Counted from the first letter of the stretch, positions 22,873 through 38,202 are shown. The stretch: 64,000 nucleotides of DNA from an uncultured Verrucomicrobiota bacterium (GCA_964510645.1 CAZECJ010000001.1:6628-70627); one strand, 5' to 3'. The notes: generated by a model not told the origin, from the sequence alone. Numbers and translations: made by a program.

Positions 22873-23457
22873 ATGATGAAAAAAACAGGTGCGGGAATTT
22901 TGTCGTTTGCCCTTGGCGTTTTCATTCTGGGGGGGGGCTGGATGGGGGTAGGGGGATCGGCCTTCGCGCAAGGACCTGCTGAAATCCCGCCGGTGGCCGC
23001 CGCCGATGAAACCGCGGCGACGCCTGCGCCGGAAGCAGCTCCGGCGATTCCCGCCGCGGCGGATTATGAGTACACCTATCCGAAAAAACTGGCCGAGCTG
23101 ACTGCGGCCGACGTTTCGGAATTGCGCAAGAAGCTCGAGGAAGTCGAAGCGCAGATCGACGACGCGGACATCGCGACCGCCAACGCCCAGATCCAAACGG
23201 CCCGCGATCAAGCCGCGGCCCATTCCCCGGAAGTCAAGGCGCTCCGCGCGCAGATCGCGCGCCTGCAGGAAGAGATCCGGATGGCGATCGACCGCGACGC
23301 GACGGTGATGACGGCCTCGGCCGGGGCGAATCGAACCCACATGGAATTTATGGACAGGCTGAATTTCCGGACGGGCCTGTTGCGGCTGATCGCGGAGAAG
23401 GAACGACAGAGCAAGTGGACGGAGCCCACCCCCGTCCCGGAGGAGAAAACCCCATGA
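22873..23457 (+). CDS. secreted coiled-coil protein, function unknown (194 aa)
   Basis: Signal-like N-terminus MMKKTGAGILSFALGVFILGGGWMGVGGSAFA, then an Ala/Pro-rich linker and heptad-like helical regions (LRKKLEEVEAQIDDADIATANAQIQTARDQ). The stop overlaps an ATG of the giant ORF (ATGA at 23454). Confidence 0.7.
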   Translation: MMKKTGAGILSFALGVFILGGGWMGVGGSAFAQGPAEIPPVAAADETAATPAPEAAPAIPAAADYEYTYPKKLAELTAADVSELRKKLEEVEAQIDDADIATANAQIQTARDQAAAHSPEVKALRAQIARLQEEIRMAIDRDATVMTASAGANRTHMEFMDRLNFRTGLLRLIAEKERQSKWTEPTPVPEEKTP

Positions 23458-26400
23458 GATCGATTTCAGCGCTTTTTGGAATGAACGACGACGGTCAGGG
23501 AATGGAGACGCAGGTGAAGGCAACAAGAGGGACGGCCATGCAGAAATCGGCGAAGCGGAACACGTGGGCAGCCGGAAGTTTCCTGGGACTGGCGCTGCTG
23601 GCGGCGGCGGTGTTCGCGCCGGCGGCGCAGGCGGCGTTCTGCGCGGACGATTGGACCGGCCTGGCGACCAACTACAACGAGTTCGCCGTCTTGAACGCCT
23701 GGGGCCAGATGGACACCGTCACCGGCAAGGTCGATTTCGAATCGGGCTACGGTCCGAGCGAGGACGCCGACGAAGACGGCCTGACCAATCTGCAGGAATT
23801 CAACGGCTGGAGCGCGACCGTCAATGGCCGGCTCGTCTGGTTCACGTGGAATCAGTCCGTCAGCGCCGCGACCAATTGGGTCAATTGCGGGCCGGATCCG
23901 GAAAATCCCGACACGGATTGCGACGGCATTTCCGATTTCTACGAGCAGCGCTATACCCGGACCAATCCGCAGATCGGCGATCCGGATCTGGACGGCATAC
24001 CCGAACCCGGCGATACGGATGGCGATGGACTCTGGGACGCGATCGAAGTGTTCGCGGGTTTGGATCCCTGCAATTCGGGCTGGACCTTGTACGACACGAA
24101 CGGCTTGCCGGCGCCCGGCGCCCAGCCGACGGGCCAGAATCCCTGGATGGATCCCGACGGCGACGGCTTGGACACGGCCGAGGAATTGCCGAGCGATGCC
24201 ATCATCCAGACTTGCGCCACGAACTACAATTTCCCGACCCAATATCTGACGAACGACGCCCTCGCGGTGTGGACCTCGCCGCTGGATTACGACACCGACG
24301 ACGACCGGCTGATCGATTCGTTCGAGCGGAAATTCGCCGGCAACAACAAATTCAATCCGATCGTGTCGGAGGAGGACAACGCCACCCTCGCCAAGGATGC
24401 GGATCTGGACAGCGACGGCTACGTCAATTTCCGGGAACAGTGCATGCATCCGCTGCTGGGGAACTACTGGAGTTCAATGACCCGCACGTCGCCGAAGCGG
24501 ACGCCGTTCGACACCTTTGAAATTCCCCGCACCGTCATCCGCGGCATCGGCGTGCGGTATCCCAAGCGTCCGCTGGACCGCATGGACGGTCTCTACATGC
24601 CGAACTATCTGAACAAGGCCAACTTCGACGGCGCCAAGGCGGTGACCAGTTTCAACCTGAGCGATGCGTGTCCGCCGCCGGCGGGCGTGCTCTGGGGCAG
24701 CCCCATGGCCACGGATGCGGGCGCCAGCGCCAAGCAAAACTTCGTGAGCGTGCTGGCCGACGGAACGGTCGTTTGGACCGAAGTGGCGGCGGCCGAACGC
24801 TGGACCAAGCCGGATAAAACCGACTGCGACACCGACGGCATGCCCGACGGATGGGAAGGGGAGCACGGCCTGAATCCGCTGTTGAACGACAACGTGTCGG
24901 GCGTTCTCGGCGACCCCGACGACGACATGTTGGTGAACTACCAGGAATACTTCGGCCAGGACGGCTACCGCATCGATTTGGTGACGGGCACCGGCGACGA
25001 GTCGAATCCCTGGATCGCGCGGTCCGTCAACTTCGGCACCTTGAGCGCCTTTGGTCTCCGGGCGGGCCAGGTGGGCTACGGCACCCGCGGCGAGCAGGCG
25101 CCCAGCAGCTACATCCCGCCGTATTCCACGGCCTACGCTCCGGCGATCTACCCCGGATTCTTCGATGCATCGTTGACGGTGGTGGCGACCAACACCGTCT
25201 ATTTCTTCGACACGAACACCATGACCGGATCCGACATCGACGTGGTGGTGACCAACTGGTCCCCCGTGATCGGCGTGCCGGCGTTCCCGGACCTGAACGA
25301 CATGCTGGAACTGTATGCGAACTACGACGTGCTCTACGGCAATTTCGACATGGCGGTGAACGCCGCGCTGCCGACCAACGGCGCCGGCGCCTTCCAGCCG
25401 TTCGCCACCTCGATGGCGGGCTTCTACTATCTGGAACGGGTGGGGGCCGAAGACGGACGCTACACTCCGGGAATCGATGCCCTCTGGCAGGTCATCCATA
25501 CTCCCGGCGTGTTCACGCCGACCGTCCCGGCCGAGCCCGGGCCTCCGCCGGTTGATGAGGTGCCTGGCGACATCATCCTGTCGGATCCGGACGGCATCCT
25601 GCTGGCCGCCGTCACGCCGATCCCCGACCTCGCGGCCGGCGAAGATCCCGCGCCTTCGATCCTCGACAACGTCCCGTTGAAGTACCCCATGCCGGGCAAC
25701 GACACGGACGACGACGGGTGGCCGGATGCCTTGGAAATCCAGATGGACGTCCGGAAAGGCCGCCAGCCCACCAGCCCCGTGCAATCGCACAATCCGATGG
25801 CGCCGCGCGCCGCCCGGGTCGTGAGCGATGACGGCATGACCGTGACCAGCGGTTCCCTCCGGCAGTATTTCGCGCCGAACTTCACGGTCGAGGCGTGGGT
25901 TTACGTCGAGCCGGAAACCGGGGCCAATTCCTTCGACGGCACGTTCATCCAAGGCAACGTCGAAGTGCCGGACTGGGGCTACAAGGCGCGGACGTTCGAC
26001 CTCGGCGTGAAATCCATCAATGGATTCGATTCGGTGCCCTACATCGAGATGGAAACGCTGGGCGGGAAGGTCTATCGGGCCTCGGCCGCGCGCTCCCTGC
26101 CGCTGGGCCAATGGGTCCATCTGGCGGGCGTGTTCGGGCGCGACCAGAATTCGCTGACGCTCTACGTGAACGGCCTGATCGAACAGGCCTTGCAGGTGGT
26201 GGAAGAAGGCGCGTGCTCCTTGGCCGCGACCCATACCCACAACGGTTCGCTGATCTTCGGCAAAACCACCACCAACAGCCTGAACAGCTTCTCGAACCGG
26301 CTGTGGATCGACGAAATCCGCATCTGGGGCGTGCCGCGCACGTCCGAGGAAATCGCGGACAACCGCGCCACGCTGATCGACCCGGTGCAGATGACCGACC

Positions 26401-38151: not shown

Positions 38152-38170
38152 TCGTTTGTCCGGTCGTTCG

Positions 38171-38202
38171 GCGCCGCGGAAGTCTTCCGCGGCGCTTTTT
38201 TT
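38171..38202 (+). terminator. rho-independent terminator closing the giant-gene locus
   Basis: GCGCCGCGGAAG-t-CTTCCGCGGCGC is a near-perfect palindrome (38171..38195), followed by TTTTTTT (38196..38202). Confidence 0.85.

Follow-up and report, generated by a model that had tools for sequence, protein, structure and literature searches.

We analysed a 64,000-nucleotide stretch of DNA from an uncultured Verrucomicrobiota bacterium (GCA_964510645.1, CAZECJ010000001.1:6628-70627; hereafter, the window), in which the gene of a giant modular exoprotein of about 4,500 residues is preceded by a small gene for a secreted coiled-coil protein and followed by a lipoprotein gene. Comparison with related loci suggests that the giant and the lipoprotein constitute a robust two-gene module, often joined by the coiled-coil gene as a third. 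The giant itself seems to be built as a chassis, with a constant C-terminus composed of a stalk, an array of thrombospondin type 3 (TSP3) calcium-binding loops and a small tail, and with a modular middle. The overall picture that we favour, with a probability of about 0.5, is that of an adhesive and degradative scaffold, tethered by the lipoprotein at the outer membrane. Positions are given on the window and the features of the locus are collected in Table 1.

The giant and lipoprotein genes stay together between different flanks

To find related loci, one genome per GTDB species was scanned, which gave 28 lipoprotein loci, all from metagenome-assembled genomes (MAGs); metagenome contigs were added to this set. 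Segments of the window's giant were then compared by tblastn with all fetched loci. Among the loci with sufficient upstream DNA, the constant C-terminal core of the giant (C-core) immediately precedes the lipoprotein gene in about 22. They are separated by a spacer of 121 nt in the window and of 89-124 nt in most loci. The cassette can be defined as a C-core followed, after about 90-125 nt, by the gene of a lipoprotein of about 320 aa, and the window carries such a cassette.

In the closest relatives, synteny extends to the entire neighbourhood (aminotransferase; Smr, MatE, HIT), for which reason adjacency alone proves little there. The pair is, however, equally kept in loci where the aminotransferase or the Smr/MatE flanks have been replaced (L012-L015, L021, L023, L025, L027, L028). 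For instance, the locus of the giant P0186, which corresponds to the L028 contig, differs in neighbours and payload, and a lipoprotein 44% identical to that of the window follows the giant. In locus L037 the neighbours and the payload also differ, and the lipoprotein matches by hhalign with an E-value of 1.5e-57. The giant P0141, again with another payload and other neighbours, is followed, according to the gene calls, by a 330-aa protein without Pfam match, likened to the lipoprotein by its position. The coiled-coil gene is present in six of the eight loci with inspectable DNA or gene calls upstream of the giant, the window included. Since the variants that lack a protease (L004, L010, L020, L021) keep both partners, the latter seem to go with the constant C-terminal part of the giant and not with the protease. 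These comparisons bear out the proposal of the initial annotation, made from the sequence of the window alone, that the giant has dedicated small partners: they adjoin giants elsewhere, even between unrelated flanks.

Table 1. Features of the giant-lipoprotein locus (positions on the window)
Feature	Position	Strand	Evidence
Candidate promoter of the coiled-coil and giant unit, TTGCCA-N17-TCTACT, with a T-rich stretch upstream	22795..22823	+	conservation
Gene of the 194-aa secreted coiled-coil protein	22873..23457	+	translation, signal peptide
Giant protein gene, 4,504 aa	23538..37052	+	likely start ATG 23538 (M42); open from 23415
N-terminal core common to the short protease-free orthologues	23655..28112	+	blastp vs L004; Pfam tiles
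DUF2793 domain	28041..28271	+	Pfam PF10983, E 2e-18
Insertion block of ~1,670 aa: LamG 3, prodomain, S8, LamG 4-6	29346..34358	+	blastp vs L004
Predicted prodomain, Fervidolysin_NPro-like	30135..30344	+	Pfam PF22148, E 1.3e-7
S8 catalytic domain, deseasin-like	30369..31325	+	Pfam PF00082, E 7.6e-54
LamG 4 (~31890-32363), LamG 5 (~32736-33155), LamG 6 (~33400-34000, boundaries approximate)	31890..34004	+	Pfam Laminin_G_3
Ig-like stalk, about four or five predicted beta-sandwich domains	34797..36059	+	AlphaFold2 model m8a8de3e1695d
C-terminal TSP3 array	36222..36779	+	TSP3_bac, 149.7 bits, 7 stretches
Predicted beta-sandwich tail, ~85 aa, ends ...GRFNLRIRTR	36798..37049	+	model strands 726-804
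GC-rich hairpin directly after the giant's stop	37060..37108	+	-38.1 kcal/mol, z -4.65
Predicted lipoprotein promoter TTGACG-N18-TAGAGT (37107-37136), leader, AAGGAG ribosome-binding site	37107..37173	+	consensus scan, conservation
Gene of the 325-aa lipoprotein	37174..38151	+	lipobox ITGC
Intrinsic terminator of the lipoprotein unit	38170..38203	+	12-bp stem (9 GC pairs) at 38170..38196, then TTTTTTT

The giant gene is intact and of composite architecture

The giant was initially described as a single uninterrupted open reading frame (ORF) covering 21% of the window and, indeed, the frame 23415..37052 (+) is open over 4,545 codons counted from a GTG. Its likely start is the ATG at 23538: an AGAGGGA ribosome-binding site is well spaced before this codon, the signal peptide MQKSAKRNTWAAGSFLGLALLAAAVFAPAAQA follows directly, and the position coincides in the alignment with the start of the 2,792-aa orthologue of L004. 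A further possible start, the ATG at 23454, shares bases with the stop codon TGA of the 194-aa ORF (ATGA), and this is the overlap of stop and candidate start noticed before; in P0125, a relative of 4,508 aa, the gene caller chose the equivalent start. Assembly collapse or a frameshift in the giant ORF is unlikely, because the DNA repeats within the gene are merely 60-85% identical among copies and because uninterrupted orthologues of 4,587, 4,593 and 4,508 aa, with identical domain order, are present in independent assemblies.

The domain content was assessed by running Pfam on the giant in tiles of 600 aa. Six matches to the laminin G-like (LamG) family Laminin_G_3 (PF13385) were obtained, with 42-134.7 bits per tile against a cut-off of 27.6, in agreement with the six jelly-roll modules recognised earlier; those of LamG 4-6 fall into tiles 6 and 7, the latter with two stretches. 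A motif count gave 29 strict (DxDxDGxx[DN]xxE) and 36 loose TSP3 calcium loops, which, together with the signal peptide, fits the Sec-exported protein with at least 30 loops of the initial annotation. The loop form D-G-(L/M)-P-D-x-W-E was said to occur often; it does exist, but with just six cases (DG[LM]PDxWE) this wording was somewhat generous. TSP3_bac (PF18884) is above threshold in the C-terminal tile. The signal peptide is the sole hydrophobic segment of the giant, and no sorting domain was found in Pfam or NCBIfam, so the absence of a membrane anchor or of a known sorting tail, as first judged by eye, holds. Outside the protease, NCBIfam matches are mostly sub-threshold and driven by TSP3 repeats, namely those to CglD and MtsD (calcium-dependent surface adhesion) and to Amuc_1099; they suggest an analogy with adhesins.

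Alignment with the short L004 orthologue reveals where the giant has been extended. Counted from M42, the two proteins align at residues 40-1525, 1595-1936 and 3608-4504 of the giant. The first segment (37-1565 in the orthologue, 39% identity) corresponds to the N-terminal core, which holds TSP3 loops, LamG 1 (~25827-26357) and LamG 2 (~27624-27959). The DUF2793 domain is also found in the relatives P0128 and P0142. Since the alignment jumps from residue 1936 to 3608, residues 1937-3607 of the giant represent an insertion, which comprises the protease and four LamG modules. Three copies of a 183-nt TSP3 linker (repeat family D4), 70-72% identical, flank and split this block (29043-29225, 31503-31685, 34359-34541). 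This arrangement suggests that modules could be gained or lost via recombination between repeated TSP3 linkers.

A constant C-terminal core carries variable payloads in a large family

An exhaustive search with the 560-aa C-core, run on representative clusters at 50% identity, retrieved 363 clusters at E<=1e-3 and 159 at E<=1e-10, and we take the size of the family as at least 159 clusters. Most of the matching proteins are 1,300-7,700 aa long, with the core a few hundred residues before the C-terminus. In view of this family, the earlier statement that no characterised system has such a combination does not extend to uniqueness.

The last 805 residues of the giant were modelled with AlphaFold2 from an alignment of 34 sequences (mean confidence score pLDDT 84). 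With this model, Foldseek returned solely tandem Ig-like/MG-domain arrays with low TM-scores; matches of the stalk include LILRB3, alpha-2-macroglobulin, complement C3 and fragments of GhpA. The Ig-like region is, as modelled, a generic stalk. The following TSP3 array is predicted to form loop-helix units, with short helices mostly 22 residues apart. The terminal beta-sandwich is modelled with confidence (means of 81-94 over 10-residue blocks) and has no Pfam family match. Its alignment (A7) shows an invariant Trp and a near-invariant Arg within the terminal (F/Y)xR(I/L)R strand, and the long representatives of the family mostly end in (F/Y)(F/Y)(R/K)(I/L/V)(R/K/E)-like strands.

The payloads upstream of this core were examined by Pfam scans of 20 family representatives (5 singly, 15 pooled), plus P0142. 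LamG and TSP3 are present in nearly all of the 20. Accessory modules vary: Peptidase_S8 was found in two representatives (plus P0142), Peptidase_M10 in three and Peptidase_C1 in one, next to InlB B-repeats in seven, VWA and PKD in three each, and a cadherin-like/Big_9 and an FG-GAP module in one each. Among the five scanned singly, P0130 and P0158 are without accessory enzyme, and in the pooled table of 15 the enzyme families are limited to S8 and M10. Secreted proteases of three mechanistic classes and a number of classical adhesion domains thus share one kind of slot, and the family can be described as a chassis in which stalk, TSP3 array and tail are constant while the middle is modular.

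Two loci from this survey have a particular organization. In L037, the gene at 4039-23463 encodes P0142, a protein of 5,975 aa with S8, Choice_anch_L and DUF2793 domains. The full trio is kept there, with a 164-aa coiled-coil protein and a 282-aa lipoprotein, between unrelated flanking genes that include an EF-hand protein and response regulators. In the P0141 locus (JGI 3300075153), the giant, which carries a matrixin, is preceded by a second giant of >3,103 aa with two prodomain-S8 units, CarboxypepD_reg and NHL domains. As this arrangement indicates, some genomes carry tandem protease-bearing giants.

The inserted subtilase is complete but dispensable

The internal subtilase with prodomain, described as complete in the initial annotation, is confirmed as such by profile searches. 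The S8 domain reaches 183.4 bits (PF00082, cut-off 21.8) and the predicted propeptide directly upstream of it 32.3 bits (PF22148, cut-off 21). The catalytic motifs VIDTG, HGTH, NNSWG and GTSMA, which begin at ORF residues 2359, 2423, 2483 and 2581, are all intact and provide Asp, His and Ser in canonical order together with the oxyanion Asn. The best match in the PDB is deseasin MCP-01 (3vv3_A, E 1.4e-89), over its residues 4-324. Since this alignment starts at residue 4, the prodomain is predicted to be cut at ...VVRADRT|PNDPMF, with ORF residue 2319 as the mature N-terminus. Deseasins typically carry a C-terminal PPC or PKD extension. Neither domain was detected by Pfam after the S8 domain of the giant, where a TSP3 linker and LamG domains are present instead. 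Judging by its motifs and nearest relative, the domain is a bona fide subtilase of the deseasin type, resembling degradative, collagenolytic deseasins and not convertase-like processing enzymes.

In the fetched loci, tblastn detected an S8-like block upstream of the lipoprotein gene in L002, L003, L006-L008, L013, L015, L025, L027 and L031, and at least 11 others lack it. Likewise, some giant orthologues paired with lipoproteins of 44-63% identity are without subtilase. On this comparison, the protease is not a defining feature of the giant family.

The two small partners

The lipoprotein predicted downstream is a member of a family of its own. More than 264 homologues were found, the few named ones coming from MAGs of Kiritimatiellia, Kiritimatiellae or 'Verrucomicrobiota', and the residues G20 and C21 of the lipobox are invariant across 69 homologues. 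The protein has no match in Pfam or NCBIfam, none in the PDB by sequence profile and none by Foldseek at E<=1e-3. Its AlphaFold2 model (pLDDT 80) consists of two all-beta domains. The most conserved segment of the family, GCxWxTGSDATSWSSSYNWVNFSGxYR, extends from C21 to R46 (window 37234-37311), with W23, W32, W38, V39, G43, Y45 and R46 invariant. It begins in the least confident part of the model: the block means are 42 and 63 over residues 21-40 and rise to 86 at 41-50. From a segment that is conserved and yet modelled with low confidence we infer a peptide that may fold on a partner. The C-terminus of the lipoprotein is a Thr/Asp-rich low-complexity tail.

The upstream 194-aa protein was rightly described as a secreted coiled-coil protein: a signal peptide is followed by an Ala/Pro-rich linker and a coiled coil of about 100 aa. 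Pfam and PDB searches gave generic coiled-coil matches at most, and no OmpH/Skp-type match; like the lipoprotein, the protein can be assigned to no Pfam family. Positional orthologues in L004, L010, L020 and L021 are 25-29% identical over the coiled coil (alignment A2), and the one in L037 is recognised by hhalign with a probability of 90%.

Conserved signals point to two transcription units

The region 22780-22872, upstream of the coiled-coil gene, contains a T-rich stretch, the block TTGCCA-N17-TCTACT and a short leader hairpin (AAAGGGCAT..GCCTTTT). All three are kept in L004, L010 and L020, where the DNA around the block and leader is not conserved. A strict consensus scan did not report this block; we infer from its conservation that it is the promoter of the coiled-coil and giant genes.

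A second set of signals lies between the giant and the lipoprotein gene. The hairpin after the giant is found at the same position in about 15 loci, with a different sequence but with the pairing kept. The spacer as a whole (37053-37173) is kept across about 20 loci, with the hairpin, TTGACG-N18-TAGAGT and the leader GGCATCTAGCAAGGAGA..GGACAGGATG. The block AATGGCGTTGACG-N18-TAGAGT, followed by the leader GGCATCTAGCAAGGAGAtcGGACAGGATG, is near-identical in loci where the lipoproteins are only 44-86% identical. Since it is near-invariant in spite of this divergence, the lipoprotein gene would have its own promoter and a strong ribosome-binding site. The spacer thus appears to be conserved at least as well as the flanking proteins. 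In both leaders of the locus, a GGGCAT motif is located shortly downstream of the -10 box.

The initial annotation had treated the locus as a whole unit that ends at a textbook terminator. The terminator is present, with its 12-bp stem and T-run, but the single operon has to be abandoned: a conserved hairpin and a sigma-70-type promoter separate the giant and the lipoprotein gene, and the locus is best described, from these signals, as two transcription units, the coiled-coil and giant genes forming the first and the lipoprotein gene the second.

Comparison with known systems

Several characterised proteins share parts of this organization. The cell-envelope-anchored subtilases (lactocepin PrtP, streptococcal C5a peptidase, SGO_0316-type LPXTG peptidases) and the secreted MCP-01 have, like the giant, a prodomain-S8 unit within a long multidomain extracellular chain that includes beta-sandwich stalk domains. 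In contrast to these, the protease of the giant is placed in the middle of a chain of 4,500 aa and orthologues can do without it, neither an LPXTG motif nor a cell-wall anchor is present, the host is a diderm of the Planctomycetes-Verrucomicrobia-Chlamydiae (PVC) group, and LamG and TSP3 modules dominate; NCBIfam matches of the giant to envelope-anchored subtilase families are far below cut-off. The dentilisin of Treponema denticola (PrcB-PrcA-PrtP) is a complex associated with the outer membrane, in which a lipoprotein and a small protein accompany an S8 protease as accessory partners. It resembles the window locus in that a small gene set joins an S8 protease with a lipoprotein and a small protein. 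The match to its PrtP (NF033595) reaches 103.7 bits against a cut-off of 300 and covers the S8 domain only, so dentilisin was rejected; moreover, the partners of the giant are unrelated to annotated families and persist in protease-free variants. Likewise, the Myxococcus proteins CglD and MtsD, named in NCBIfam as an adventurous gliding motility lipoprotein and a cell-cell cohesion protein, are calcium-binding TSP3-repeat envelope proteins. Their matches (NF033765, 82.4 bits vs 400; NF047639, 77.1 vs 800) are repeat-driven and confined to the TSP3 region, and the giant differs from both in size and remaining architecture.

The closest descriptions concern other giant proteins. Those of Omnitrophota have predicted signal peptides, TSP3/dockerin-like calcium loops, carbohydrate-binding modules and sometimes an embedded S8 domain, and conserved accessory genes adjoin them; they come without functional data (West-Roberts et al. 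2023, 10.1101/2023.11.21.568195). They are likened to the Kiritimatiellia giant by description, and differ from it in belonging to another phylum, in their size of at least 30,000 aa and in their dockerin, discoidin and HEAT domains; the cassette of lipoprotein, coiled-coil protein and C-core is not reported in that paper. Large extracellular multidomain proteins have also been noted in other PVC lineages (PMC12057145), and LamG is known as a frequent domain of huge proteins (PMC11573180).

Known export and anchoring routes were examined as well. In cohesin-dockerin scaffoldins, a C-terminal calcium-binding loop-helix module docks on a surface-fixed beta-sandwich partner, which offers an analogy to the giant and nothing beyond it: neither the giant nor the lipoprotein has a Dockerin or Cohesin match in Pfam, and no cohesin figures in the 50 matches that Foldseek listed for the lipoprotein. 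A cargo of the type IX secretion system (T9SS) was rejected, since no Por_Secre_tail or type B C-terminal domain (CTD) was found in the C-terminal tile or the last 110 aa (Pfam, NCBIfam, E<=10). Sorting by exosortase or sortase was discarded too: the last 60 residues contain no PEP motif, the sole LPx[TSA]G match is internal (residue 2185, LPFAG), and there is no C-terminal transmembrane helix. For autotransporters and two-partner secretion (TPS), no autotransporter, TPS or POTRA match was obtained in the giant's tiles or the neighbours, and the C-terminus is modelled as a small beta-sandwich. A LapA-like protein with RTX repeats, exported by type I secretion, can be dismissed in view of the Sec signal of the giant, the lack of an RTX/HemolysinCabind match and the lack of adjacent ABC, MFP and TolC genes. 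With none of the systems tested matching, and none found in the literature, the claim that no characterised system has this combination stands in its restricted sense. In function, the giant would be comparable to subtilases anchored in the cell envelope and to giant calcium-dependent adhesins, and in concept to the anchoring of scaffoldins. Our literature search found no paper on the Kiritimatiellia giant family.

Other genes of the window and a similar terminal motif

The gene at 45332-48652 (+) encodes a protein of 1,107 aa with an alpha-amylase domain, CBM48, a proprotein-convertase P-domain and Big_9/cadherin-like modules. It ends in ...SRIFRIRVLNE, which resembles the terminal strand of the giant family. 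In L035, an 843-aa CBM_4_9 protein that adjoins the giant ends in ...GFYRYKVWLPGME. When the giant tails were compared with the amylase-like and L035 CBM proteins by hhalign, the probabilities were 2% and 17%, so the likeness is one of motif only. Hypothetically, these proteins and the giant could have a sorting-type tail in common.

The window is GC-rich (about 65%); the GC content falls to 0.57 over 62001-64000, against 0.62-0.70 in the rest. No tRNA or Rfam feature was found in the window. A 1,434-aa histidine kinase with seven or eight PAS domains before HisKA_3 and HATPase_c is encoded at 10379-14683 (-). The ORFs 14811-17573 (-) and 53879-55876 (+), of 920 and 666 aa, have weak NHL-repeat matches only, and 44423-48706 (-), 50957-55306 (-) and 48699-51236 (+) have no Pfam match. 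Some of these large ORFs are probably shadow ORFs of GC-rich DNA.

Discussion

The working model that we prefer places the giant at the cell surface. It would be exported via Sec and form a fibre stiffened by calcium, with its TSP3 linkers calcium-loaded. Its constant base, i.e. the stalk, the TSP3 array or the tail, would be recognised by the neighbouring lipoprotein, which could tether it at the outer membrane; the lipoprotein, made from its own promoter, would probably be in excess. The distal LamG modules may act as lectin-type binders of glycan-rich polymers or surfaces, and versions with a protease might in addition digest the protein moiety of what is bound, for example of glycoproteins or matrix. 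Activation of the subtilase is expected to cleave after the prodomain, near ORF residue 2318, as in other subtilases. This autocleavage would split the giant into an N-terminal part of about 2,280 aa and a C-terminal part of about 2,230 aa, the latter starting with the protease and staying with the base. The coiled-coil protein, co-transcribed and possibly translationally coupled with the giant, is most likely a periplasmic holdase or assembly factor.

Several observations weigh against this model. For export across the outer membrane, the locus offers the Sec signal only, with no known sorting domain and no secretion genes nearby. The LamG domains are putative glycan binders, assigned as such by sequence. 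No structural or sequence relative of the lipoprotein points to anchoring, and its most distant homologues with upstream DNA (L029 and L032, 33-37% identity) have no adjoining giant. The giants P0186 and P0141 have no coiled-coil gene in front of them. Finally, the C-core and lipoprotein family members all come from MAGs and none from a cultured isolate.

Other readings of the locus are compatible with part of these data. The initial annotation suggested a self-processing polyprotein, in which the embedded protease cuts the giant into matrix or adhesin subunits while the small proteins serve export or maturation. The intact prodomain and catalytic motifs speak for it, as subtilases are expected, by their biology, to cut themselves at least once at the end of the prodomain, and in relatives the corresponding position is taken by further proteases of zymogen type (M10, C1). 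For the giants of Omnitrophota, it has been suggested that the S8 and C39 domains embedded in them cleave the proteins that carry them (10.1101/2023.11.21.568195). However, many orthologues and family members are protease-free and still have the same chassis and partners, VWA or cadherin-like modules fill the same kind of slot, the S8 domain is nearest to the degradative collagenolytic MCP-01 and not to processing convertases, and no repeated cleavage-site motif was found between the modules of the giant. Since family members exist without protease, or with a matrixin, a papain-type protease or VWA at the same place, self-processing would not be the core of the design, and since the partners track the constant C-terminal region, they would not be protease-specific maturation factors. 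What remains of the suggestion is a secreted modular giant with partners; as a whole we consider it unlikely. Nor is it probable that the lipoprotein holds the giant in the periplasm, where it would bind and trim imported glycoproteins or polysaccharides. Such a location would agree with the presence of Sec signals only, with the lack of an outer-membrane translocation domain, a sorting tail or secretion genes in the window, and with the fact that lipoproteins of many diderms face the periplasm by default. But the VWA, cadherin-like, PKD, FG-GAP, InlB B-repeat, LamG and TSP3 modules of the family are typical of extracellular adhesion proteins, and the periplasm offers little room for a fibre of 4,500-7,700 aa that includes an Ig-like stalk. 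Moreover, a signal cannot be recognised in substrates of type II secretion either, so that its absence is uninformative.

The remaining two explanations are far less probable. A device for contact-dependent attack or prey capture, like the giants proposed for predatory Omnitrophota or the grappling hooks of Aureispira, with the protease directed at the envelope of the target cell, is brought to mind by the GhpA fragments among the Foldseek matches of the Ig-like array. Giant TSP3- and dockerin-rich proteins of PVC relatives have indeed been interpreted in this way (10.1101/2023.11.21.568195, PMC12057145), and the payloads of the present family are lytic proteases. Yet the likeness to GhpA is that of a generic Ig-like array, with TM-scores <=0.15, no toxin, Rhs or peptidoglycan-hydrolase module was found in the 21 family members scanned, and the giant gene sits among housekeeping genes. 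Kiritimatiellia are, in addition, known as glycan fermenters and not as predators, and we regard such a device as very improbable. There is likewise only a slim chance that the three genes form no functional unit and are adjacent merely through conserved gene order in a narrow clade. The shared neighbourhood of the closest relatives and the lipoprotein's own promoter would fit this idea, but the genes remain neighbours at identities as low as 36-45%, even where the payload and the two flanks have been completely exchanged, and the giant-lipoprotein spacer is itself conserved in length and content.

Beyond the tethered scaffold that we favour, the C-terminal module and the lipoprotein, often with the coiled-coil protein, could represent an undescribed cell-surface display and anchoring system of Kiritimatiellia, into which interchangeable serine, metallo- or cysteine proteases and adhesion domains are plugged by TSP3-linker recombination. 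Functionally, it would be comparable to cohesin-dockerin or T9SS-CTD anchoring. If this were true, the comparable ending of other secreted enzymes, that of the amylase-like protein among them, would mark a wider sorting signal. We put this extension forward tentatively and hold it to be rather doubtful.

Kiritimatiellia, which presumably degrade complex glycans, are frequently met in anaerobic digesters, rumen, gut and sediments, and the names of MAGs with lipoprotein matches point to sources of this kind. To our knowledge, almost nothing is known of their surface machinery. Giant modular secreted scaffolds of adhesins or enzymes are known already, and the giant of the window belongs to a large and uncharacterised family of Kiritimatiellia. 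The novelty of the locus lies in the conserved giant-lipoprotein(-coiled-coil) cassette, in its constant C-terminal base and in the evidence for payload swapping. If the lipoprotein is not an anchor, the locus would add one more uncharacterised giant adhesin-like gene to those frequent in PVC genomes. If it is, the cassette would represent a novel mode of enzyme display on the cells of diderm PVC bacteria, and a natural case of modular payload exchange through repeated linkers.

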